NCBI GenBank assembly: GCA_031262085.1
Contig: JAISIN010000096.1
Span: 2,471 to 66,470 of the forward strand
Direction of reading: 5' to 3'
Length of the DNA stretch: 64,000 nt
Source: Prevotellaceae bacterium
Lineage (GTDB): Bacteria > Bacteroidota > Bacteroidia > Bacteroidales > Bacteroidaceae
The notes under the pieces were generated by a model that was given only the letters and a program-made list of their open reading frames with translations, was not told the DNA's origin and ran no database searches. Made by a program: the position numbers and the translations under genes. Shown piece after piece: positions 1 through 12,921 of the stretch (its first letter is position 1; each line of letters opens with the position of its first letter).

Positions 1-341
1 TTTTCCTCTTTCAGAGCCTCCAATAACTGCCCGTCGGGATAATACATTCGATGAATATTGTCCTGTGGTAGTCCCAGTAATTTTGAAACTGCTGTTGTAA
101 GCTTCGCCCGCATCTGCATTAACAGCTCTTTATCCGGTGCATTTGCCACACCATTCAAAGAACACTCTCCTCCGGATAAAATAATCACATGAGGATAGTT
201 TGCCTGTCTACACAGGCGAGCTATCAGTCCACCACAACCGAATGCCTCATCATCGGGATGAGGAGCAAGGATAACAACCTTCTTGCCATCGAATGATGTT
301 CGGTACTTCCTGCCCAAAAGATTAAATAGCAATCGCACCAT
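1..341 (-). CDS. PIG-L/LmbE family deacetylase, N-terminal part (runs off the window)
   Basis: Not in the ORF track. Manual translation from ATG at 341 gives MVRLLFNLLGRKYRTSFDGKKVVILAPHPDDEAFGCGGLIARL..., with the PIG-L APHPDDE metal motif. The frame stays open upstream to the TAA at 438-440, so the start is uncertain. Confidence 0.85.
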   Translation of the reverse strand, partial: MVRLLFNLLGRKYRTSFDGKKVVILAPHPDDEAFGCGGLIARLCRQANYPHVIILSGGECSLNGVANAPDKELLMQMRAKLTTAVSKLLGLPQDNIHRMYYPDGQLLEALKEE

Positions 342-420
342 GTGAATGCCGGTTTGCTGCCTCAATTTGAAACACCAAAAACCGAAACGGTAACGGAAGC
401 TAAAGCTATTCCCGGACAAT

Positions 421-488
421 CGCTCGTTCGGCACTTTTTAGACTGAACTTATCAAAGACGGAGCGTTAGTTGTCGCTCCGTCTTTTTT
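421..488 (+). repeat. Copy 1 of the dispersed 23-bp-unit element (one unit plus hairpin/T6)
   Basis: CGCTCGTTCGGCACTTTTTAGAC-TGAACTTATCAAA-GACGGAGCG-ttagttgt-CGCTCCGTC-TTTTTT, nearly identical to 63581-63653. Confidence 0.95.
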
Positions 489-1424
489 AATTGCGTACTT
501 CTGATCGGGTATGATATAGGTCTGAGACCGTTGCCGTATACCAATAGCACAAGCTATGCGATACAAAAGCAACAAAAACCGCTGCGGAATAGTCCAATTG
601 TTGACCAACGGATAATCCTTCCATAACGAGATAGAACGATAATACAGATACTTGAAACGATAAGGGTGCGTGTCGTATGAATACTTTAGCCAAGGTTTAG
701 CGACAAGCGAATAATGGAGAATGACATACGAGCAAATAGTCTCTTCTATCTCGGTTTTCAATGAACCTTCCCATTGCCTCTCCTGAAGCAAAAATGCAGA
801 TTGGAAATTATACCGTATCGGTAATAGTACCATATCTTCCACAACAACATGATAAAGAGCTTCTTGATCAACTATTTGCATATTGGGTGTTTTTTTAATA
901 TAATCAAGACATCGTTCTGTGATAGAATGTGACCGCCAATATACCAAATTCATTAATAGCATACCCGTATTATACGCATAGGGGTGATGCCATTTCAATA
1001 TTTCATCTGAGAAAAGTGGATCGAGCACAGCTCCAAATGCAACATTCTCTACATTTTCATTCCATAGGGATTCGATATCTCCATCGACTATCATATCAGA
1101 ATCCAAATAAATAACCCGCTCTACATCAGGTGGCAGTAGTTCGGGAGCTAACAAACGAAAATAATTAGCACAGCTCCAATATGAAAATTGTGGAACCGGA
1201 TATTGTGCTATTTGTTCATCAGGTACTTGCACAATATGAATCGGCGTATTATATCGTTCTGCTAATAAAGAAAACAGAGATGAATTCTTGGCACTAAGCC
1301 CTCTTACTAAAATATAAGTACACAATTGATGATTTCGGTTATTCTCCAAGAGTGAAGTAAGCATGATACCACAATAAGGTGCAAATTTTTCATCCGTTGC
1401 ACATAAGATGTTTATAGGTTTCAT
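438..1424 (-). CDS. Glycosyltransferase family 8
   Basis: INILCATD N-terminus, YFRL...RVIYLDSD (DxD), YNTGMLL, DQEAL and ILHYS..KPW motifs of GT8. The last ~16 residues are encoded by the repeat element. Confidence 0.92.
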   Translation of the reverse strand: MKPINILCATDEKFAPYCGIMLTSLLENNRNHQLCTYILVRGLSAKNSSLFSLLAERYNTPIHIVQVPDEQIAQYPVPQFSYWSCANYFRLLAPELLPPDVERVIYLDSDMIVDGDIESLWNENVENVAFGAVLDPLFSDEILKWHHPYAYNTGMLLMNLVYWRSHSITERCLDYIKKTPNMQIVDQEALYHVVVEDMVLLPIRYNFQSAFLLQERQWEGSLKTEIEETICSYVILHYSLVAKPWLKYSYDTHPYRFKYLYYRSISLWKDYPLVNNWTIPQRFLLLLYRIACAIGIRQRSQTYIIPDQKYAIKKDGATTNAPSLISSV

Positions 1425-2365
1425 TGTGAGGTATTATAAATCTGCGTTCGTTTTCGGAAACATATAGCACAAGCTATATTATACAGGAACAGTGACATGC
1501 GCTGCCCCCTAGTAAAATTGCATACCAAAGGATAATTTTTCCATAACGAGATAGAACGATAATATAAGTATTTATGGTGATAGGGATCTTTAACGTATGA
1601 ATACTTTAGCCAAGGTTTGGAAGTATAGTGAATGACAACACAGGAGCAGGCAGTCTGCTTGATCTCATCTGCGATATGCTCATTGAACAGCATCTCTTTG
1701 TGTAAAAAGAAGGTTTGAAAATTATACTTTATCGACAGTAATACATATTCTTTTTCTTTCATTACAACATGATTAATCGCCGATTGATCGACAAACTTTA
1801 TTTGAGTTGGATGTTCCCTAATATAATCAAAACAACGTTCTGCAATGGAATGACTTCTCCAATATTGTAAGTTAATCAATAGCATACCTGTATTGATAGT
1901 GATCGTATTTTCGGGCATATTCCAATCGCGATGGTACATCCCTTGAAACACAGCATCAAGAACACCTCCGAATGCAACAGTATCTATATTTTCATTCCAT
2001 AAAGATTCAATGTCGCTATCAATAATCATATCGCAATCAAAATAAATAATTCGTTCTACATCGGATGGCAATAGCGTTGGAGCCAGTAAGCGATAATAGG
2101 TAGGGAGAGAGTAGTGTGCGGTCAGCGGAAGAGATTGTGGCAAATCTCCGGCAGATACTTTCACCATATGAATAGGAGTGTTATACCGCTCTGCTAATTG
2201 AGAAAACATAGACAGATTCTTTTCAGTGAGTTCATCCGTTAGTATGTATGTACATAATTGATGCTGCCTGTTATTCTCAAAAAGTGAAGTAAGCATGATA
2301 CCACAATAGGGTACATAATGATCGTCCGTAGCACACAATATGTTTATTGTAAATGTTGTTTCCAT
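1421..2365 (-). CDS. Glycosyltransferase family 8 (paralogue)
   Basis: YYRL, IIYFDCD, INTGMLL, DQSAIN and IHYTSKPW motifs. Confidence 0.92.
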   Translation of the reverse strand: METTFTINILCATDDHYVPYCGIMLTSLFENNRQHQLCTYILTDELTEKNLSMFSQLAERYNTPIHMVKVSAGDLPQSLPLTAHYSLPTYYRLLAPTLLPSDVERIIYFDCDMIIDSDIESLWNENIDTVAFGGVLDAVFQGMYHRDWNMPENTITINTGMLLINLQYWRSHSIAERCFDYIREHPTQIKFVDQSAINHVVMKEKEYVLLSIKYNFQTFFLHKEMLFNEHIADEIKQTACSCVVIHYTSKPWLKYSYVKDPYHHKYLYYRSISLWKNYPLVCNFTRGQRMSLFLYNIACAICFRKRTQIYNTSQ

Positions 2366-3888
2366 ACAGTAAGTCGTTTGGCAAATATACGCACATCAGA
2401 AGATATGAACCATGCCAGCAATAGAGCCGGAATAGATAAAGAGACAAAAAAAGCGAAGGCTTCCAATAACCAACTCCCCCAGTTGTAAGAAAGAGGCACA
2501 GAACGTAAATGATTCTTTATAAACAAAGCAATAATCAAAGCCACGACCAAAGGAAGTGCATTCATGCAGATCAACCGAACATATTGAATATATGGCAATT
2601 TAAGCGCTCGAGAAAAGAGGTAATAGGGTTTCCACAAATGCATCACCGGAAACGACACGGCCAAAGATGCAGCTAAGATGCCTGCCAAGCCCCAATGTGA
2701 GCCGGCAACAAGCACGATTCCCAATGATAGTACATTCACTATTGCCGTCCAAAGATCATTTACCAAACCGAATAAGTTCAGGTATCGAACCGTTGTACCA
2801 TTAATAAAATCCAGAAAGAAAGAGAGAGAGATTAATGACACAAGTAATGGAGATAATACATACTGCGTACCCAACCAAACAGAGATAAATGGAGACGCGA
2901 GATGATAGATACACAAAGCCAAAATGCCACCTACTATAAAACGAACAGAAAACAATTCTTTGTAGATGCTGTAGATTCGTTGACTATCCCCTTCGGCGAT
3001 TAAAATGCCGATGCCGGTATCCGCACTATCCAATATACCTGAAACAAAATCAGATACACGCGAGACAACCTGCACGTAATTATTGTAAAAGGCAACAAAA
3101 GAGAGTGATGAATAGGTATAGATTAAAATAGGTATGATTTGTGAAGTGATAACCCAACTCGAAGAATGTATGTACGACCGCCAGGCATAGCGAATCATTT
3201 CAGGATATTGACGGAACAGTTTGTTACCCGTTCTAATACGGAGTGTAAGCCATGGATAGAGATGATTGTTTTTTCGATTGAGAATCATTGCATTGATAAT
3301 GCCAAATACCAACTCAATGACAAAGTAAAGCACAAAACTACGTACATAAATAGCGAACAATAACTGTATAAGCACTTTAGTTGTGCTTGTCAGTTGAAAA
3401 TATCCTCTTACAATATAGCCACGTTGATTAATGTACAACAAGCAACATCGATAATTAACAAAATAACCTATTAACGATGAACATAAATAAACATAGAAGC
3501 CAACATAAATAGTTACTAACGAAAAAGGTGTATTCGCAAATATAGCCGGCAGAAAGAAGGAAAACAAGATACCTGCCCCCAAGATAAACACTCCGATATT
3601 GTAATACAGGTAACCAAATAATGAAATAACCTCATTAATGCGTTTCTTGTCGTCGTTCGCTACTAATTTGAAGAGAATGAAATAAACCGCATTACTAACT
3701 CCCAAATCGGCTAAATTGAGAAATGACAAGAACCCCCCAAGAGTAGAAGTTAGACCCATGAAATCGGCTCCCAATTTATCAAGGAAAATCTTACGAGTAA
3801 AAAATGACACGATCAGCACGACAAAGTAGCATATCATATTCATTCGTGCATTCAGCAGAGTCTTTTTTACACGAGATTCGCGAGCCAT
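2344..3888 (-). CDS. wzx: Polysaccharide flippase (Wzx/MOP family)
   Basis: 514 aa with many hydrophobic helices; Bacteroides-type N-terminus SRVKKTLLNA...RKIFLDKLGADFMGL; located in a polysaccharide locus. Confidence 0.85.
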   Translation of the reverse strand: MARESRVKKTLLNARMNMICYFVVLIVSFFTRKIFLDKLGADFMGLTSTLGGFLSFLNLADLGVSNAVYFILFKLVANDDKKRINEVISLFGYLYYNIGVFILGAGILFSFFLPAIFANTPFSLVTIYVGFYVYLCSSLIGYFVNYRCCLLYINQRGYIVRGYFQLTSTTKVLIQLLFAIYVRSFVLYFVIELVFGIINAMILNRKNNHLYPWLTLRIRTGNKLFRQYPEMIRYAWRSYIHSSSWVITSQIIPILIYTYSSLSFVAFYNNYVQVVSRVSDFVSGILDSADTGIGILIAEGDSQRIYSIYKELFSVRFIVGGILALCIYHLASPFISVWLGTQYVLSPLLVSLISLSFFLDFINGTTVRYLNLFGLVNDLWTAIVNVLSLGIVLVAGSHWGLAGILAASLAVSFPVMHLWKPYYLFSRALKLPYIQYVRLICMNALPLVVALIIALFIKNHLRSVPLSYNWGSWLLEAFAFFVSLSIPALLLAWFISSDVRIFAKRLTVWKQHLQ

Positions 3889-4811
3889 CTATGTGTGATT
3901 CTATATTTTATTGCTTCTATTAACTCCTTAGCAATAATAATTTTGTGCCCATGGATTAGATAGTAACGCCAAGCTTTCCAATAATAGGGAGATTCCTTGA
4001 GAAACAAAACATCGCCCAAGGTAAACTGAAGGAAGGGAATCTTATGCTTGTAATAGATTTTATTCATTTGGATTCCAACTTCCAAGTTATCAAAAACATA
4101 ATCATAATCCGTACTTTTACTGATAGAACTACCTCTCACTACATAATGATACAACAATGCGGATGACTTTGCCACTGTTCGAGCATGCATACCACAGCGA
4201 ATATTAAACATGACATCGTCAGCTCCCCACCTTTCGTCAAAAGCAAGAGAATGACTCCTTATTAATTCGCTACGTATCAACTTACTCCACGATACCCAAA
4301 CTATATATCTCCATATTTCAAACGGGTATGCTTTGATATACTCTGTTTCAACACACCTCTCTAATGTTTCTGCATCAATCGAAGCAAAATCAAAAAACAC
4401 TATATCATACTTGCTATCCTTCCACGCATCCAATATCTGTAACATTCCTTCATAAAAGAAATCATCGGCATCAGCAAATACAATCCATTTACCTTGAGCC
4501 TTTTGCAGCGCTACATTACGGGCATATCCGGGTCCTTTCCCTTTTTTGGTAAAGTACCCTTTTCCATTCTCCCCTCTGCAAATACGACTCTCCCTTGTAT
4601 AGACAATTTCTACCCCTTTACGCTCCGCTCCCGGAAAAGCGTTGAAATCCACCATCTCAGGATCGCTATTATCATCCACTATAATTATCTGAACATCCTC
4701 TCGATAAGGAATAGAATCCAAGCATCGCTGCAAAAGTTGAGGTATATTCCTGTGTGGAATAATTATGGTATAAGTAATTTCGGCAGAATCAGCCAATGGT
4801 TTTGCATTCAT
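3867..4811 (-). CDS. Glycosyltransferase family 2
   Basis: IIIPHRN, IVDDNS, GYARN, FADADD and DDVMF motifs. Confidence 0.93.
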   Translation of the reverse strand: MNAKPLADSAEITYTIIIPHRNIPQLLQRCLDSIPYREDVQIIIVDDNSDPEMVDFNAFPGAERKGVEIVYTRESRICRGENGKGYFTKKGKGPGYARNVALQKAQGKWIVFADADDFFYEGMLQILDAWKDSKYDIVFFDFASIDAETLERCVETEYIKAYPFEIWRYIVWVSWSKLIRSELIRSHSLAFDERWGADDVMFNIRCGMHARTVAKSSALLYHYVVRGSSISKSTDYDYVFDNLEVGIQMNKIYYKHKIPFLQFTLGDVLFLKESPYYWKAWRYYLIHGHKIIIAKELIEAIKYRITHRWLANLV

Positions 4812-4829
4812 ATTTTCAATACGTAGAGA

Positions 4830-5759
4830 TTACACATGCTTCACCAACCACTTCTGACCGATATTAAACCTTAACGCTTGCACAAAATGCTTACAAATAT
4901 TCATATTGCGTTCATGACGCAAATAAAAAGACCACGCCTTCCAACGGTAGGGCGTTTCACTTAATGATAACACATACCCTAAAGAGAAAAGGGGAGGAAA
5001 CTTAATCTTGTATCTACAAAGTACTTTATTAAGCCTGATGTAAACTTTCAAACGATTCAATAAGTGATCATAATCTGTGCTATTCCATAAAGAATGGCTT
5101 CTTACTACGGAACAATACAACAACTTTGACGACCAAATTACTTTCCGAGCATATAAGCTGCTATAAATAGAAAACATCACATCCTCATCACCACATATTT
5201 CATCAAAAACGATAGCATGTCTTTTGATAAGTTCACTTCGTATGAGTTTGCCCCAAGGAACATAATATACCCATCTTACTGTCTCGACCGGAAGTGTTCT
5301 CGCCCACGCTTGTCTACTTTCTACTTTGGCTAATGTATCCGAATCGACCGAATCGGTATCGAAGAATATTATATCATACTCGCTATCCTTCCACGCATCC
5401 AATATTTGCAGCATATCTTTATGAAAGAAATCGTCGGCATCGGCAAATACGATCCACTTACCTTGCGCCTTCTGTAAGGCTACATTACGGGCATATCCGG
5501 GACCTTTCCCTCTTTTGGTAAAGTATCCTTTTCCATCTTCTCCCATGCAGATACGACTTTCGCGCGTATAGATAATCTCTACTCCTTTGCGACCAGCTCC
5601 CGGAAAAGCATTGAAATCTACCATCTCAGGATCGCTGTTATCATCGACTATAATAACCTGAACATCCTCACGATAAGGAATAGAATCCAAGCATCGCTGC
5701 AGAAGCTTAGGCATATTTCTGTGAGGTATGATGATGCTATATGTCTTTTCCACGAGCAT
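4830..5759 (-). CDS. Glycosyltransferase family 2 (paralogue of 3867-4811)
   Basis: Same motifs (IIIPHRN, VDDNS, FADADD, EDVMF). Start placed at the ATG at 5759 (MLVEKTYS), just after the upstream gene's stop. Confidence 0.92.
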   Translation of the reverse strand: MLVEKTYSIIIPHRNMPKLLQRCLDSIPYREDVQVIIVDDNSDPEMVDFNAFPGAGRKGVEIIYTRESRICMGEDGKGYFTKRGKGPGYARNVALQKAQGKWIVFADADDFFHKDMLQILDAWKDSEYDIIFFDTDSVDSDTLAKVESRQAWARTLPVETVRWVYYVPWGKLIRSELIKRHAIVFDEICGDEDVMFSIYSSLYARKVIWSSKLLYCSVVRSHSLWNSTDYDHLLNRLKVYIRLNKVLCRYKIKFPPLFSLGYVLSLSETPYRWKAWSFYLRHERNMNICKHFVQALRFNIGQKWLVKHV

Positions 5760-5761
5760 TT

Positions 5762-6691
5762 TTAACGGCGAAACAAGTATCGGGATAACCATTTTTTCGA
5801 TTTACTCCCCATACTCAATATGTAATAGATAGACAAGCAAATAAACAAATTATATTTTTCTGTCCAAAGCTTCCGGATCGCATCATTTTTATATAACATC
5901 ATAAAATGGAAGAAGTATCCGGCAACTCTTAGTTCAACTTTCTTAGGAACAGAAACAATCGATAATATGTATTGCAATACCATTAACCCTTCCGAAAAGT
6001 AAAACCCGTCACTAAATGCTTTCGTCGATACACTAAGAGAATGTTTCCGCAAATAGTTATAGCATCTGTGTATTCTACCTACTTTTCCCTGATTCAATAG
6101 GGCAACCCATATATACCAATCGCCTGCCAATCTGAAAGAGGAGGCTCTTTCAATATCCGAGTCGCAACACACATCACGCCGAAAAAGCACACTACTCGCA
6201 TTGTATATTTTTGTTGTGTAAAGCATCTGCTTCCGAATGTATTCTTTTCCATCAATGAGCACGACTTCTTGCTCTCTATTTATAATATCTAACACCGCTG
6301 AAGTGATGTTCCCTTCACCGTCTATTATATAAGAATCGCAAGCTGCTATCACCACAGACTTGTCTAAATAGAATACCCTTACCATTTCTTGCAGAAAATC
6401 AGGATGTGCATAATCGTCGCTTTCGGCTATCCAGATCAAGTTGCCGGTAGCCATCTCTATTCCTTTTTTCCATTGTTTAAAGGTGGAGCCGGAGTTGACA
6501 TCATTGTAGACTATCCGGCTGACTTTTTGATTACCGCGATAACTTTCAATAATTTCACGACTATTGTCGATAGATGCATCATCTAACAAGATGATCTCGA
6601 AGTTTTGATAGGTCTGTTGCAACACGCTGTCTATTCGTAGCCTTAAATAGCGAGCATAATTATAGTTGGGGATTATTACACTAACTTTCAT
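5762..6691 (-). CDS. Glycosyltransferase family 2
   Basis: MKVSVIIPNYN, LDDASID, WIAESDD and GDW motifs. Confidence 0.93.
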   Translation of the reverse strand: MKVSVIIPNYNYARYLRLRIDSVLQQTYQNFEIILLDDASIDNSREIIESYRGNQKVSRIVYNDVNSGSTFKQWKKGIEMATGNLIWIAESDDYAHPDFLQEMVRVFYLDKSVVIAACDSYIIDGEGNITSAVLDIINREQEVVLIDGKEYIRKQMLYTTKIYNASSVLFRRDVCCDSDIERASSFRLAGDWYIWVALLNQGKVGRIHRCYNYLRKHSLSVSTKAFSDGFYFSEGLMVLQYILSIVSVPKKVELRVAGYFFHFMMLYKNDAIRKLWTEKYNLFICLSIYYILSMGSKSKKWLSRYLFRR

Positions 6692-9081
6692 CTGCTTACA
6701 TGCCGATAGGAATAGTAACCATACTTCCCATACCTCCCATAATAATACCCATAGTATCCATGCCGCACATCGACCGCATTCAGTACCACCGCCATATTGG
6801 GATATTTATGCCCGCTATACAACTTCTCTACCTCCGAAAGCTGCGCCCGCTCGAACAAACCGGCACGAATGACAAACAGCGTCATATCAACATGATTGCT
6901 GATGATAGAGGCATCTGCTACAAAGCCATCCGGCGGACAGTCGATAAACACATAGTCGTAGTCAGCACCTACCTCGCGTAACAGTTCGCCCAAGGCATGC
7001 TCCGTGAGCAATTCGGTGGGATTGGGCGGGATAACACCCACCGGAAGCACATCCAGATTGGGATGTAGCTTTCCATAAACAATCGACGCGCGATAATCAG
7101 CAAGGGTACCGTTCAGATAGAGAGAGACACCTTGCGACGGCGAATCGACCAACGCACTGACCGACGCCTTGCGTAAGTCGAGATCGACCACCAGCACCCG
7201 CTTGCCTTTGATAACGAAGCTCATCGCCAAATTGACCGTCATAAAGCTCTTGCCGCTGCCGGGGTGAAACGAGGTGGTCATGACAACGTTGTTCTTCTTC
7301 TCTTTCGTGGTGCTCATAAACTCGAAATGGGTGCGCACCATGCGGAACGATTCATTAATCAAGTCCGTGCTCTTATCTTTCACAATCACTTCAACATGTC
7401 GATGTCGACGCCGCCGCCTGATAGTGTGCGAGCGCTTCGCCTTACTCTCAGTAAGAGGAATCTCACCCAGATAGGGCAGCGACAACCATTCGATATCGCG
7501 TTTGCTACGCACCTTGGTATTCATCACCTCTTTTACATAAAGAATAACTATCGGTATAAGCAATCCGACCGCCAACGCCATCAGCAGACTGTTCCGTTTG
7601 AGCGGAGCAATGGGAGCGTAGCTGCCCGAAGTCGATTTGATGATGCGCACGTTGGAGGCGGTAAAGGCTTGAGACAACTCTGCCTCTTCGCGTTTCTGCA
7701 ACAGGAAGAGAAAGAGCGATTCCTTCACCTTCTGCTGCCGTTCTACCGAAAGCAGGTATTTGGCTTGCTCGGGGTTGGAAGCGATGCGGGCGGTGGTGCG
7801 GGCTTCGCTTTGCTCCAAATCGCCGATTTGGGTGATCAGACGATGTTCGGTATTGTCGATGGTTTCCAGAATGGTCTGCCGGATAGTCTCCAACGACCGG
7901 TCAAGCTCGCGCACCAACGGATGCGACTCGCCGCTGTTGGCTACCATGGTGTTATACTGCAACTGCAGCCTGTTGTATTCGCCTATCTGCTGGTCGATGC
8001 TGGAGTTCTCGATGCCCGAGTTGATAGGCAGCAGGTTGTGCTTGCCCATCCGTCCGTCGACATAGATGCGAATGTAACGCACCATCGACAATTGCGTGTT
8101 CAGCGCGAGGATGCGCGAGGAAGTTTGCTGCGACTGCGACAAGTAGAGGCTGGAGGTGGCTTGCACATCAGGAATCAGGTTTTTCCGTTTGAAGGAGGAG
8201 ATATCTTCGTCGACATGCCCCAACTCCCGCTCTATCACAGCCAATCGTTCGTTGATAAAAGCAGCGGTGGTGAGATTGACTTGATTGCGGTTCTTTGCCC
8301 AATTGTCGCTATAAGCGGCAATGATCGCATTGACTACATCTTTGGCACGTTGTGGCGAGACATCGGTGGCAGAGATGTTGATGATAGACGATTTATCACT
8401 GTTCAACTCAATGCCCAGACGGGCTACATATCCGCCTGCCACTGCCGACACCGACGAACGGCTCACACGAATCTCCGGATGAAAGGCGCTTGCATAGTAA
8501 GGCGTGGCGACCACCACCACCCTGCCTACCGGCGTGCGGAGGGTATCCGACAGCGTACCCGTCACGCTTTCGTCGGTTGCCTCTCCTACCGAAGAACCAT
8601 CAAACTCGGTTAGCTCGATCGTGCGGTTCTCGTCCAATCGAAGCAGAAAGCCACTGCCGCCATCTTCGGGAGCGCTATCTATGAAAGAAACCGTCACGGG
8701 CGACGTCTGCCCATACAACACGCGATCATACGACCAGTGACTAACGGTATACTCCACATTCAGTCGTAACATGCGCACCACCTCTTCCATGATGAGTGGC
8801 GAACCGATAGCTATCATCTCGTCGTTGATGCCGGTATCGAACTGAAACATCACGCCGGGCATATTGATGCCGCTACTCGAAGAGGAGCTGTTCTGTGAGA
8901 CATTCGACAGCAGAATGGAAGCCTGCTGCATATAGGTAGGAGGCGTGGTACTGATACGTGCAACGGCGATAACAAGCGCCGCACCGACGGAGAGCACAAA
9001 CCACACCCAATGTGCTCTGCACAATGCGAACATCTCTTTAACAGAGATGGAGTCGGCAAGACGGGGGGAAGGAGGAGGCAA
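6688..9081 (-). CDS. wzc: Polysaccharide co-polymerase / tyrosine autokinase (Wzc/GumC family)
   Basis: Two TM segments flanking a coiled coil, Walker A (SFHPGSGKS), VDLDLRK, IDCPP and a C-terminal Tyr cluster YYGYYYGRYGKYGYYSY. Start is TTG at 9081 or a later ATG. Confidence 0.93.
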   Translation of the reverse strand: MPPPSPRLADSISVKEMFALCRAHWVWFVLSVGAALVIAVARISTTPPTYMQQASILLSNVSQNSSSSSSGINMPGVMFQFDTGINDEMIAIGSPLIMEEVVRMLRLNVEYTVSHWSYDRVLYGQTSPVTVSFIDSAPEDGGSGFLLRLDENRTIELTEFDGSSVGEATDESVTGTLSDTLRTPVGRVVVVATPYYASAFHPEIRVSRSSVSAVAGGYVARLGIELNSDKSSIINISATDVSPQRAKDVVNAIIAAYSDNWAKNRNQVNLTTAAFINERLAVIERELGHVDEDISSFKRKNLIPDVQATSSLYLSQSQQTSSRILALNTQLSMVRYIRIYVDGRMGKHNLLPINSGIENSSIDQQIGEYNRLQLQYNTMVANSGESHPLVRELDRSLETIRQTILETIDNTEHRLITQIGDLEQSEARTTARIASNPEQAKYLLSVERQQKVKESLFLFLLQKREEAELSQAFTASNVRIIKSTSGSYAPIAPLKRNSLLMALAVGLLIPIVILYVKEVMNTKVRSKRDIEWLSLPYLGEIPLTESKAKRSHTIRRRRRHRHVEVIVKDKSTDLINESFRMVRTHFEFMSTTKEKKNNVVMTTSFHPGSGKSFMTVNLAMSFVIKGKRVLVVDLDLRKASVSALVDSPSQGVSLYLNGTLADYRASIVYGKLHPNLDVLPVGVIPPNPTELLTEHALGELLREVGADYDYVFIDCPPDGFVADASIISNHVDMTLFVIRAGLFERAQLSEVEKLYSGHKYPNMAVVLNAVDVRHGYYGYYYGRYGKYGYYSYRHVSR

Positions 9082-9126: not shown

Positions 9127-11034
9127 CTAACGGAAGATGGTGAAGAACAGGGTGGTAACAAACGAGGTCAGTGACATCCAGAAAGAGACCGATTGCATGT
9201 TATTGCCGTTGACGGTAGACTGGCGGGCACGCATGGAGTTGGGTTCTACGTAGATGACGTCGTTCTGTTGGAGATAATAGACCGGAGAGGCATATACATC
9301 TCGGACAGAGCAGAGATTGACGAGATAGGGCACTTGCTTACCTGCCTCTGTGCGCAACACCACGATGTGTTCGCGATTACCTTGTATGGTCAGGTCACCG
9401 ACCATGCTGAGGGCTTCGAGCAGGGTAAATCCATCTTTATCTATATAGATGCGCCCGGGCGCAACGACTTCGCCCAACACCGTAACGGAGAGATTGAGAT
9501 ACTCTACGGTAACTACCGCATCTTTGAGCAGGTCGCGACGGATCAACTCGTTTTGAACAAAGGCAGAGACCTCTTCCTTGTTCATCCCTGCTACCCGAAC
9601 GGTACCTAACACGGGAATGGTAATGCAGCCATGACTGTCGACGGTATAACCCGGCATCAGCATAGTGCTATTACGATTGTTATAGCTGTTGCCATATCTG
9701 TAATCGTCGGAAAACAGATTAAAGGGCTGCGTCAATTCCGGATCGCGACCGCTCACAATGACAGAGATGCGATCGCCAATGCTGAGCGCTATCGGACGGA
9801 TGAGGGGTGTTTGTTCTTCTGTCAGGGAGTCTACATCCTGAAAGTAGCGGATCTTTTTCACCGACCCGCACGAACTTGCCAATAATAGCAGGCAGCAGAG
9901 ACCAATTGCACAGGAGAGATGTAAAGCGCTACCAACCATAGCAGTGTGCTTTTTCACGCTGCGGGTTTTATTCATCATTTTAAATACAATTTTTGCATGA
10001 GGTATCAGTAGGAAGAGTATACCCATCGACAGTACGCCAGATAGCTGCCACGCTACGGAGGCGCCATACAAACAGAGCAATCCGTATCCCGCAAGAGCCA
10101 ATAGGTTGAGTGCAAGTATACACAAGGTGGCTACCCAATGGCTGCAGTTCGTATCGACCAGTAGGTGATGAAAATGTGTTCTGTCGGGCAGGAAGGGAGA
10201 TTTGCCACGAATAAATCTACCTGCAATCACGCGCACGCCATCGAACAGCGGAACAAAGAAGATGGCAAGTATCAACGGAATTACACCTACTCCTTTCTGT
10301 GTCCATAAAGAGATGCCGACGTCGCTCTGCTGCAACCGTATCGTAAAGAGAGCCATCAACATGCCCAGCAGCAAGGTACCACCGTTGCCCAGATACATCT
10401 TACGTTTGCTGCCAAACACATTATATACAAAAAACGGTATGATCGCACCGCAGCAGGCAATTGCCAATATGCCCCAAGCAATGAAATCTATATAGAAGAA
10501 GAGAATTCCGAAAATGGCACTCGCTATGAAACAAAAGCCCGAGCACAGACCGTCGATACCGTCTATAAAGTTGATGGCATTGATCAGACCGACACAGAAG
10601 AAGAGTGTCAGAGGTACCGATATCCACGAAGTTAATTGCCCAATACCACCCCAAAGTCCGAAGAAATGATTGATGCTCTCGTTGCTCAATGCCATAAACA
10701 GTAGCAGGCAGGTAGTTTCTATCAGTAAACGCATCTTGCACGACAGATGTAGCACATCATCGAGGGTACCTATGTAGAGCATCACCAGCAGTACAATCAA
10801 GACAAGAGGAGGCAACATCAGATTACCGTAAGCCACCGCACATCCGGCACTCAAACAGATACCGAAGAATATTGCCCAACCACCCAGCACGGGGACAGGC
10901 GTCTGTTGCAGCTTACGCCCATCGTAGCCATCGACCAGCTCCTTGGAGATTGCCAGTTTGAGCAACCATGGATAAATCCATCGCGTCGATAAAAGGGCTA
11001 TCACAAATGTCGCTAATAGCAAAAGAATGGTCAT
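9127..11034 (-). CDS. Single ORF fusing a WecA/TagO (MraY-like GT4) initiating transferase to a Wza-type export lipoprotein
   Basis: N-terminal half: PVPVLGG, GTLDD, INAINFIDGIDGL, MYLGNGG, PDRTHFHH. C-terminal half: lipobox LASSC, GDRISVIV, VDSHGCITIPVLG and an SLBB repeat TVLGEV..PG. Confidence 0.88.
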   Translation of the reverse strand: MTILLLLATFVIALLSTRWIYPWLLKLAISKELVDGYDGRKLQQTPVPVLGGWAIFFGICLSAGCAVAYGNLMLPPLVLIVLLVMLYIGTLDDVLHLSCKMRLLIETTCLLLFMALSNESINHFFGLWGGIGQLTSWISVPLTLFFCVGLINAINFIDGIDGLCSGFCFIASAIFGILFFYIDFIAWGILAIACCGAIIPFFVYNVFGSKRKMYLGNGGTLLLGMLMALFTIRLQQSDVGISLWTQKGVGVIPLILAIFFVPLFDGVRVIAGRFIRGKSPFLPDRTHFHHLLVDTNCSHWVATLCILALNLLALAGYGLLCLYGASVAWQLSGVLSMGILFLLIPHAKIVFKMMNKTRSVKKHTAMVGSALHLSCAIGLCCLLLLASSCGSVKKIRYFQDVDSLTEEQTPLIRPIALSIGDRISVIVSGRDPELTQPFNLFSDDYRYGNSYNNRNSTMLMPGYTVDSHGCITIPVLGTVRVAGMNKEEVSAFVQNELIRRDLLKDAVVTVEYLNLSVTVLGEVVAPGRIYIDKDGFTLLEALSMVGDLTIQGNREHIVVLRTEAGKQVPYLVNLCSVRDVYASPVYYLQQNDVIYVEPNSMRARQSTVNGNNMQSVSFWMSLTSFVTTLFFTIFR

Positions 11035-11129
11035 ACTTCCTTTATGTAATCAATTCGGAATATTCGGATAAGTTGCTGCATTCACGCTATCAGTCATCCG
11101 GCATACGGCTGTAACCGCAGAAAGTAGCC

Positions 11130-11169
11130 AAATAAATTAGAGTAAAAAAGTCTGGGATTGTGCCAACAA
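11130..11169. repeat. Direct repeat copy A (40 bp)
   Basis: AAATAAATTAGAGTAAAAAAGTCTGGGATTGTGCCAACAA; matches 12023-12064 with one substitution and a 2-nt indel. Confidence 0.9.
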
Positions 11170-11327
11170 GCGATTGTCGTTAGTCGAAGGAGATGGGAGA
11201 AGTATGGTAGCGACAGAAAAAACGACTGATAACAGCAAGGCATACCAATGGGGCTTCGATTAATAGATATAACACTAAAAATCAATTAATTATAGTTATA
11301 TTCAAGAAGACAACAAGCTCTTATAAA

Positions 11328-11587
11328 GTAGTATCTCTTAGTAAGAGAGCACACAAACAGAAACAGATATGCTTACAATAAATTCGATAATTATAGCATT
11401 ATATAAAGAATGATTCATATCATGCACGCTATTCCAAAATGCTAAAACCACATTTAACGCTTCTTTTGAAACTACTAAAAAATATTTTTCGTTAAAGTTG
11501 CCATTTATGCTTGTACAGCTTGCAAAACACGCTATATTTGTGCCCGAAAGTCTATTGTTTGTGTGCTCTCTTACTAAGAGATACTAC
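11328..11587. promoter_or_regulatory. Invertible promoter segment: 32-bp IRs at 11328-11359 and 11556-11587 enclosing 196 bp
   Basis: GTAGTATCTCTTAGTAAGAGAGCACACAAACA has an exact reverse complement at 11556-11587. Inside is a + strand Bacteroidetes promoter: CTTG 11510-11513, 19 nt, then TATATTTG 11533-11540. Confidence 0.88.
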
Positions 11588-11772
11588 ATTGGGGGGGTAC
11601 GAATCATCGCCATTTCTATTTGTCATTCTTCTGTACTATTTCATTTCAAAATAGCAACAAGTCATACGTAGACGCGTATAAACAATTGCAGCTTATCGCT
11701 TGCTGTAATATGTAAGCAAGGGATAAGCTGTAAGCAAACTCCACTCCTTCAGGAAGGATTCGTTATAGAGCC

Positions 11773-11960
11773 ATAAAAGATCGGTTTTTCAGGTTACGAG
11801 CAGTCGGCACTTTTTAGACCGTTCGTTCGGCACTTTTTAGACCGCTCGTTCGGCACTTTTTAGACCGCCCGTTCGGCACTTTTTAGACCGCTCGTTCGGC
11901 ACTTTTTAGACCGCTCGTTCGGCACTTTTTAGACTGAACTTATCAAAGAAGACGGAGCGT
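11773..11960 (+). repeat. Copy 2 of the 23-bp-unit element (leader, 1 partial + 5 full units, half hairpin)
   Basis: Leader ATAAAAGATCGGTTTTTCAGGTTACGAGCAG; units CG(C/T)(T/C)CGTTCGGCACTTTTTAGAC at 11804(partial)-11934; tail TGAACTTATCAAAGAAGACGGAGCGT. Confidence 0.95.
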
Positions 11961-11962
11961 CA

Positions 11963-12015
11963 GGGCAACCGCAACAAAAATAAAGTTAGCCCCATTAGTT
12001 TTGTTGCGGTTGCCC
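11963..12015. repeat. 17-bp perfect inverted repeat with a 19-nt loop
   Basis: GGGCAACCGCAACAAAA (11963-11979) / TTTTGTTGCGGTTGCCC (11999-12015). Confidence 0.9.
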
Positions 12016-12022
12016 AGACCCG

Positions 12023-12064
12023 AAATAAATTAGAGTAAAAAAGCCTGGGATTTTGTGCCAACAA
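12023..12064. repeat. Direct repeat copy B (42 bp)
   Basis: AAATAAATTAGAGTAAAAAAGCCTGGGATTTTGTGCCAACAA, immediately downstream (minus strand) of a TACATTTG box at 12066-12073. Confidence 0.9.
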
Positions 12065-12085
12065 ACAAATGTAGCACGACTATCG

Positions 12086-12877
12086 TCAATCTTTTATCCG
12101 CAGTACCCTGATTCCGGTGCTGTTTTTGTTGTTCTTGAGCATCCGCGACAACGATAGTTTAGACACGACTACTTTCTTTTCGGCAGAAGAGGCATGGAGC
12201 AGGCAGAGTGTACCGCGCACATAGAAGGCAATGCCCAAATGCGAAATGTCTAATCCCGGTATACGGGTAGTAATGGCAATCATGTCGCCATTCTTTATCC
12301 AAACGAATCCATTGTCGGGTAACTTCTCTTTGGGAAGATAGTGCACCACCTGTCCCGACAAGGTTTGCTCGATAGATTTCATCTTGGTTACATTCGCAGG
12401 CGAGGTGCGCAGTTGCTTGTAGAGGTCGGGGTGCGACGACATATACGACAGCGACACCGTTTGGGTATCGGCACTGTGCAGAGCGGTGATGTCGGTCAGA
12501 TACCCTCGTGCAATGGCATGGTTGATCCATTCGGTGGTGTAGTGCAAGCGCGAGGTGTAGCCGTCGACCTTACCGTTGCGATAGCGCAACGCTTGCACCT
12601 TGTCGATAAAGTCGATCTCGGAGATCTCACCGTCGACCACCGGGCAGAGCGACATGGCAAGAGTGTACTCCACAAAGGTGGTGCAGTCGACCTCGTCGCT
12701 ATTGATAACGAGTTCTTCGTCATTGTTCACCTCCAGCGTATGTGCCACGTAGGGAACATTCAGAAATTGTAAGCCGTTGCTTATCATTCGATCTCCGGCG
12801 TCCTGCGCCCGGAGTGTTGCTGCGGCAGAGCAAAGAATAGCTGCCCAAAGCATCGCCATAACATTCATCCTTTTCAT
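12086..12877 (-). CDS. DUF1460 / AmiA-like N-acetylmuramoyl-L-alanine amidase
   Basis: Signal peptide, PYVAHTLE, VDCTTFVE, RYRNG..YTSRLHY..W, GLDISHLG and LLHASS motifs. Start could be 12877 or 12901. Confidence 0.85.
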   Translation of the reverse strand: MKRMNVMAMLWAAILCSAAATLRAQDAGDRMISNGLQFLNVPYVAHTLEVNNDEELVINSDEVDCTTFVEYTLAMSLCPVVDGEISEIDFIDKVQALRYRNGKVDGYTSRLHYTTEWINHAIARGYLTDITALHSADTQTVSLSYMSSHPDLYKQLRTSPANVTKMKSIEQTLSGQVVHYLPKEKLPDNGFVWIKNGDMIAITTRIPGLDISHLGIAFYVRGTLCLLHASSAEKKVVVSKLSLSRMLKNNKNSTGIRVLRIKD

Positions 12878-12921
12878 CGTTTTCCAATTATCAAAATTCA
12901 ATTCTTACTTTTTAATGGTTG

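Follow-up and report, generated by a model that had tools for sequence, protein, structure and literature searches.

A probable invertible promoter of a surface-polysaccharide operon in a Prevotellaceae genome, with a site shared by at least six switches

A 260-bp element at positions 11328-11587 of the window, that is, the whole 64,000-nt stretch of Prevotellaceae DNA analysed here, has the features of an invertible promoter that would toggle a Wzx/Wzy-type surface-polysaccharide operon encoding a WecA-Wza fusion, Wzc and glycosyltransferases. The window represents contig C66 of a 3.18-Mb metagenome-assembled genome (MAG; 134 contigs, completeness 90.6%). We hold with good confidence that the element is an invertible promoter of this operon, assembled OFF, and that a tyrosine recombinase encoded on contig C62 is its presumed trans-acting invertase. 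That the element is a real phase switch of the well-known Bacteroidales kind appears very likely on comparison with its paralogues and with related genomes. Such invertible promoters, controlled by tyrosine invertases, are established at Bacteroidales glycan loci (PMC8748976; PMC12632263). The sharing of one site by at least six switches, with no local recombinase, is a mildly unusual trait of this genome. The features of the locus are collected in Table 1.

Table 1. Coordinates of the switch, the polysaccharide operon and the right-hand neighbours in the window
Feature	Position	Strand	Remarks
Left inverted repeat (IRL)	11325..11359	.	perfect from 11328
29-nt genome-wide core in IRL	11328-11356		GTAGTATCTCTTAGTAAGAGAGCACACAA
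Presumed recombinase core	11334..11348	+	TCTCT-TAGTA-AGAGA, read from sequence
Predicted invertible segment	11360..11555	.	196 bp; homologous to interiors of five other switches
Bacteroidetes-type promoter	11510..11540	+	-33 CTTG (11510-11513), 19-nt spacer, -7 TATATTTG (11533-11540)
Right inverted repeat (IRR)	11556..11590	.	core site TCTCTTACTAAGAGA at 11567-11581
Leader, switch to operon	11035..11324	-
Operon gene 1	9127..11034	-	635 aa; GT4/WecA-like initiating phosphotransferase fused to Wza-type exporter (Poly_export + SLBB)
Wzc-like chain-length regulator / tyrosine autokinase	6688..9081	-	Wzz, GNVR, AAA_31
Rest of operon	3..6691	-
Three GT2 glycosyltransferases	5762-6691, 4830-5792, 3867-4811	-
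514-aa protein	2344-3888	-	no family match
Two GT8-like transferases	1421-2365, 438-1424	-
PIG-L-like deacetylase fragment	3-434	-
AmiA-like gene	12086-12901		convergent; ABC and MlaE genes beyond

Analysis of the sequence confirmed the perfect inverted repeats claimed in the preliminary description, 32 nt each (11328-11359 and 11556-11587) with their arms 196 nt apart; allowing one mismatch extends them to 35 nt (11325-11359 and 11556-11590). This is the sole perfect inverted repeat of at least 16 nt with a gap of 60-800 nt in the 64-kb window, and the longest one obtained in 500 shuffles of the region 10500-12500 measured 15 nt versus the 32 nt of the real repeat, which places the latter far beyond chance. 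Each arm also carries the near-palindrome described earlier, TCTCTTA-G-TAAGAGA (11334-11348 and 11567-11581). Its central 15 nt, TCTCT-TAGTA-AGAGA, consist of two 5-nt inverted half-sites with an asymmetric 5-nt spacer between them, and this core is likely the crossover region.

The promoter reported within the segment, CTTG-N19-TATATTTG on the + strand, is present as stated; it sits 15 nt inside the right repeat and reads outward. Apart from its -7 box, neither strand has a TAnnTTTG between 11035 and 11975, so that the segment is indeed devoid of such a box on the minus strand, as had been noted. The operon genes to the left all lie on the minus strand, and the promoter thus faces away from them. 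As assembled, this only promoter is directed to the right, where it meets non-coding DNA and then the convergent AmiA-like gene at its 3' end, so the switch is OFF. We propose, by analogy with the published precedents fimS and the Bacteroides Tsr enzymes, that a tyrosine recombinase would occupy the TCTCT/AGAGA half-sites of each repeat and synapse both repeats, and that strand exchange within the TAGTA spacer would then invert the 196-bp segment, inversion being the outcome expected of an asymmetric spacer. By simple arithmetic, this rearrangement would bring the -7 box to 11375-11382 on the minus strand, leaving a leader of ~330 nt to the ATG at 11034, with the promoter reading leftward into the operon in what would be the ON state.

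Neither a recombinase gene nor a NusG-like UpxY gene was found at the C66 locus. To its left the switch adjoins the WecA-Wza fusion, the first gene that follows it, and to its right come the AmiA-like, ABC and MlaE genes. The stretch from the switch to the AmiA-like 3' end contains a hairpin, a tandem array of 23-bp units (11804-11934) and a 25-bp stem (11959-12019). A ~45-nt motif is directly repeated on either side of the switch (11130-11177 and 12023-12072, 88% identical); its right copy forms part of a dispersed element carrying the 23-bp tandem array and abuts a minus-strand TACATTTG box (12066-12073).

A genome scan for further copies of the repeat core, as proposed in the preliminary description, returned 10 occurrences of the 29-nt core GTAGTATCTCTTAGTAAGAGAGCACACAA. 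These make up four complete switches, with inverted pairs on C65, C66, C98 and C131, and two more at the ends of C85 and C121, where single copies remain because both contigs stop inside the invertible segment and one flank of each is unassembled. Alignment of the six switches revealed cores identical but for one SNP and interiors 63-86% identical, with the paralogous promoters (TTTG-N19-TACATTTG or TACTTTTG) in register and at the same distance from one repeat. Repeats strictly kept while interiors diverged are the pattern expected from selection by a shared recombinase. The promoter-distal flanks of the C66, C98 and C131 switches are also mutually homologous: in BLAST comparisons, the ~110 nt adjoining the left repeat on C66 were 74% identical to the matching flank on C131, and the C98 flank paired with that of C131 in the same way. 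Such homology argues that these three loci arose by locus duplication, not by insertion. The flank leads into the WecA-Wza operon on C66, into a 291-aa protein of unassigned function and then a WecA-like gene on C131, and into a 268-aa paralogue of that protein and then an AAA-ATPase-like gene on C98; all three promoters were assembled facing away from these genes. The two paralogues (C131:1413-2288 and C98:518-1324) occupy the usual UpxY position, and a Pfam and NCBIfam scan returned no match for the 291-aa protein.

The remaining switches have other surroundings. On C85, the promoter was assembled ON, facing an HlyD/RND/outer-membrane-factor efflux operon (C85:21678-27391) that appears, from this arrangement, to be under phase-variable control. 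The C121 promoter is aimed at the 3' end of asnA, and the C65 switch is flanked by convergent ferritin and RNase G-like genes, which leaves its promoter nothing to drive. A seventh switch (C77:7323-7611), with doubled repeats and the sister core TCTCT-TCCTA-AGAGA, was assembled ON toward a UpxY-like gene followed by WecA and then Wza. The encoded UpxY-like protein is 30% identical to a congener's UpxY, and the upstream neighbour of the switch, which we take from the sequence to be dnaA, is not a recombinase. The different C77 spacer (TCCTA) would bar recombination with the six switches that have TAGTA, even were the two kinds of site to share a single enzyme. No recombinase gene was found beside any of the five switches with both flanks assembled (C65, C66, C98, C131 and C77), and an Rfam scan of all switch loci and their flanks yielded a spurious miRNA match only.

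We compared these loci with those of relatives. WecA and Wza homologues (~40% identical) are common in the genus, and congeners share a layout of a ~400-aa tyrosine recombinase (domains Arm-DNA-bind_5, Phage_int_SAM_5 and Phage_integrase), a repeat-flanked promoter segment of 170-300 bp, UpxY (NusG family), WecA and Wza. The recombinase adjoins its switch in all congeners examined. The congener cores include TCTCT-TTGGA-AGAGA, TCTCT-GTATA-AGAGA, TCTCT-CATTA-AGAGA, TCTCT-TTCCA-AGAGA, TCTCT-CCGTA-AGAGA and TTTCT-AAGTA-AGAAA; their consensus is T[CT]TCT-N5-AGA[GA]A, to which TCTCT-TAGTA-AGAGA conforms. Cores of this form (seen in L024, L025, L028-L033, L060, L063, L064 and L069) lie beside tyrosine recombinases at homologous capsule loci and beside the closest recombinase homologues in more than 10 congener species. 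Five orthologous congener switches with the TTTCT-AAGTA-AGAAA core, once aligned, were all in one orientation, OFF. A two-armed search with the exact 15-nt core uncovered one promoter-bearing switch in each of two other MAGs, namely one labelled Bacteroides sp., in which the switch adjoins a 401-aa tyrosine recombinase, and a yak-rectum Bacteroidales bacterium. With up to two mismatches allowed, the 29-mer had no match in 60 further genomes (36 from the same genus and 24 from other families); BLAST of the switch region against 250 species of the genus gave chance-level matches only, a 21-mer from the repeat had no match in two public contig collections, and literature searches with the literal repeat strings returned unrelated papers only. 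Together, the six paralogous switches with identical cores and the homologous capsule loci of congeners back the earlier reading of the element as a Bacteroidales invertible promoter assembled OFF.

We searched the genome for the enzyme. It contains three Phage_integrase matches, none of them on C66: a XerD-like gene on C46, an integrase with a frameshift on C76, and the C62 gene (C62:4946-5941, G000). The C76 tyrosine integrase (C76:17304-18192) is split by the frameshift at the contig end, and is either a pseudogene or an assembly error. The C62 protein, of 331 aa, combines Phage_int_SAM_5 and Phage_integrase domains without the ~85-aa arm-binding domain (Arm-DNA-bind_5), and is the sole intact member of the Tsr-like family in the assembly. 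It shows 43-58% identity to locus-adjacent invertases, with 43% for the capsule-adjacent one of a congener (E=1e-76) and up to 58% for others across 112 of 250 species, and alignment with XerD matches its R, R-H, H and Y residues to the catalytic ones. In G147, a short homologue, 54% identical, is directly followed by a switch whose repeat, TGTGGTCTCTCTGACTAAGAGAGACCACAA, resembles that of C66. No repeat was found near the C62 gene itself, the neighbours of which we read from the sequence as purL and a superoxide dismutase gene (sodB). With no recombinase beside the fully flanked switches and the sole intact one lying between these two genes, inversion probably occurs in trans, and the C62 recombinase is most likely the invertase, predicted to act on all switches.

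A different or additional invertase may nonetheless be missing, since the MAG has a completeness of ~91% and contig ends cut two of the switches short. The switch would then be real and its recombinase would be encoded, for instance, beyond the ends of C85 or C121, which break off inside their segments with one flank each unseen. We regard this alternative, which bears on the identity of the enzyme alone, as live but less likely, although the constant adjacency of recombinase and switch in the congeners examined fits it, as does the frameshifted integrase at the C76 end. The five fully flanked switches speak against it, none having a recombinase at its side, and so do two properties of C62, which belongs, intact, to this very recombinase family and whose nearest short homologue is accompanied by a look-alike site.

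It is improbable that the element is instead a relic, that is, an ancestral invertible promoter locked OFF after loss of the adjacent recombinase and UpxY. Both genes are lacking at the C66 locus, and the C66, C98 and C131 promoters were all assembled facing away from the polysaccharide-side flank, as a relic would have it. A dead site, however, would decay alongside its interior, whereas the ten 29-nt cores are identical but for one SNP and the interiors have diverged to 63-69% identity; moreover, switches of this sort are normally assembled in a majority-OFF state (PMC8748976).

We likewise see only a slim chance that orientation is not decisive because the operon is read through from the minus-strand TACATTTG box ~1 kb upstream. 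This box (12066-12073) is the first TAnnTTTG that the minus strand offers upstream of the operon, and the ~45-nt motif that it abuts is repeated in the operon leader. Such a transcript, however, must cross the 25-bp stem, the 23-bp tandem array and a further hairpin, and read-through would leave a conserved switch without purpose. Finally, a MITE-like dispersed non-autonomous element with terminal inverted repeats and an outward promoter by chance, itself not invertible, would account for at least six copies of 260-269 bp with identical termini and for the C65 copy between convergent genes, but this reading was rejected as highly improbable: there are no direct target-site duplications, the adjoining bases (AAA/GAA/AAT left, ATT right) instead extending the inverted repeat, the flanks are homologous, the C66 and C131 copies head loci beginning with or containing a WecA-type gene, the termini conform to the consensus of recombinase sites at relatives' switches, and no transposase is associated.

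We then placed the invertible-promoter reading among known systems. In E. coli fimS, a sigma-70 promoter flanked by 9-bp repeats is inverted by the tyrosine recombinases FimB and FimE. The C66 element shares with it a promoter between short inverted repeats and, as proposed, a tyrosine recombinase, whereas fimS belongs to another phylum, serves a single locus and has its recombinase genes alongside. The Mpi consensus is ARACGTWCGT. This motif is absent from both strands of 11300-11620, hence from the repeats, and no serine recombinase (Resolvase family, PF00239) was detected in the genome by a search that was positive in 12 of 14 control genomes; GTTAC-N7-GTAAC has 0 copies genome-wide. On these grounds we rejected membership in either the Mpi or the Tsr25/26 type, and the preliminary description had rightly set the site apart from both. 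Its further suggestion of a distinctive site with possibly different specificity did not hold, as the core fits the T[CT]TCT-N5-AGA[GA]A found beside Tsr-like tyrosine recombinases of congeners. To judge from this core, the site is an ordinary member of a third, widespread class, apart from the other two.

In its parts, the C66 switch closely resembles the invertible promoters that stand beside a tyrosine invertase gene at Bacteroidales glycan (CPS) loci (Yan, Hall and Jiang 2022, PMC8748976). Shared traits are repeats of 20-35 nt around a segment of 170-300 bp (32/35 nt and 196 bp here), a -33 TTTG / -7 TAnnTTTG promoter close to one end, a downstream operon of the WecA/Wza type, the T[CT]TCT-N5-AGA[GA]A core and a recombinase of the same family in the genome. 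The invertases of those glycan-locus switches lie immediately upstream of them (PMC8748976), whereas here the recombinase is not beside the switch and has no Arm-DNA-bind_5 domain, the operon has no UpxY, and one site is reused at at least six loci, some unrelated to capsule. The locus also differs from UpxY/UpxZ-regulated Bacteroides CPS loci in that its first gene is the WecA-Wza fusion; the C77 sister locus does have a UpxY-like gene. Examples of glycan-locus promoters with an adjacent invertase are the B. thetaiotaomicron cps loci and the PhaseFinder-type invertons reportedly described by Jiang in 2019. Switches of the Tsr25/26 type, with GTTAC-N7-GTAAC sites, operate at S-layer/outer-surface lipoprotein loci of B. 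fragilis and B. thetaiotaomicron, the latter species carrying eight near-identical copies of a 301-bp promoter segment (PMC4611039; bioRxiv 10.1101/521070). They resemble the present family as tyrosine-recombinase switches at several loci per genome with near-identical promoter segments but, besides their site, differ in mostly keeping an adjacent recombinase. In its logic, with one enzyme encoded elsewhere and many promoter switches with a common repeat, the family recalls Mpi, named as the global serine invertase of B. fragilis in the passage of PMC12632263 that cites Coyne et al. 2003; a single enzyme is what we infer here, and the genome differs from the Mpi system in having neither a Resolvase-family gene nor the Mpi motif in its repeats. 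The same paper, where it refers to a 2007 study (its reference 117), supplies a precedent, a Bacteroides tyrosine invertase that works in trans at a remote site; as presented there, that enzyme keeps a local site, unlike the C62 gene, which has none beside it.

The known habit is to express one capsule at a time (PMC12632263). The assembly, taken as the majority state, has the C77 capsule locus ON and the C66, C98 and C131 loci OFF, which fits this habit. We tentatively entertain, as a possibility that we would not call probable, that the arm-less orphan enzyme of C62, fixed between the housekeeping genes purL and sodB, is a genome-wide master switch for at least seven promoters belonging to two spacer classes, of which TAGTA occurs at six loci and TCCTA at one. 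If so, it would be the tyrosine-recombinase counterpart of the serine invertase Mpi, and the polysaccharide loci would be co-regulated with the RND efflux operon and perhaps with the chromate-transporter pair on C98, downstream of the promoter as assembled. Should the orphan enzyme be the invertase, global Mpi-like control would also have arisen within the tyrosine-invertase family, and the genome would offer a compact study system of one enzyme and many sites. Phase-variable capsules shape the encounters of gut Bacteroidales with phages and host immunity, so one more switch of this sort is what one would expect. What this genome adds is an architecture of many switches with one identical site and no local recombinase, one of them facing an RND efflux operon.

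Given six identical sites, a master enzyme could also recombine between loci. The C65 switch lies inside a ~650-bp near-palindrome (C65:23001-23647), with a ~190-bp element X on both sides, inverted and ~96% identical; this X-switch-X' palindrome may then be a scar left by exchange between two loci with identical sites. Element X, which has a C-rich run and a conserved hairpin, recurs after the promoter-proximal repeat on C85 (27600-27912), ahead of the RND efflux operon, and on C98 (1679-1880), ahead of two chromate-transporter genes. It had no Rfam match and no clear covariation, and may be a portable leader.

We also looked for other assemblies of the C66 locus. Exact look-ups of the AmiA-like protein (with two start codons) and of MlaE found no other assembly, and WecA-Wza had no match in a homology search at E<=1e-100. 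An exact protein look-up of WecA-Wza yielded one Logan contig, from run SRR14710920, which ends inside the 32-nt repeat; as Logan contigs are built with k=31, a perfect repeat of 32 nt is not spanned, and the contig does not report orientation. WecA-Wza is a single 635-aa ORF in this contig too, and in more than 15 congeners the WecA-like and Wza-like proteins are encoded by separate adjacent genes with a stop codon between them.
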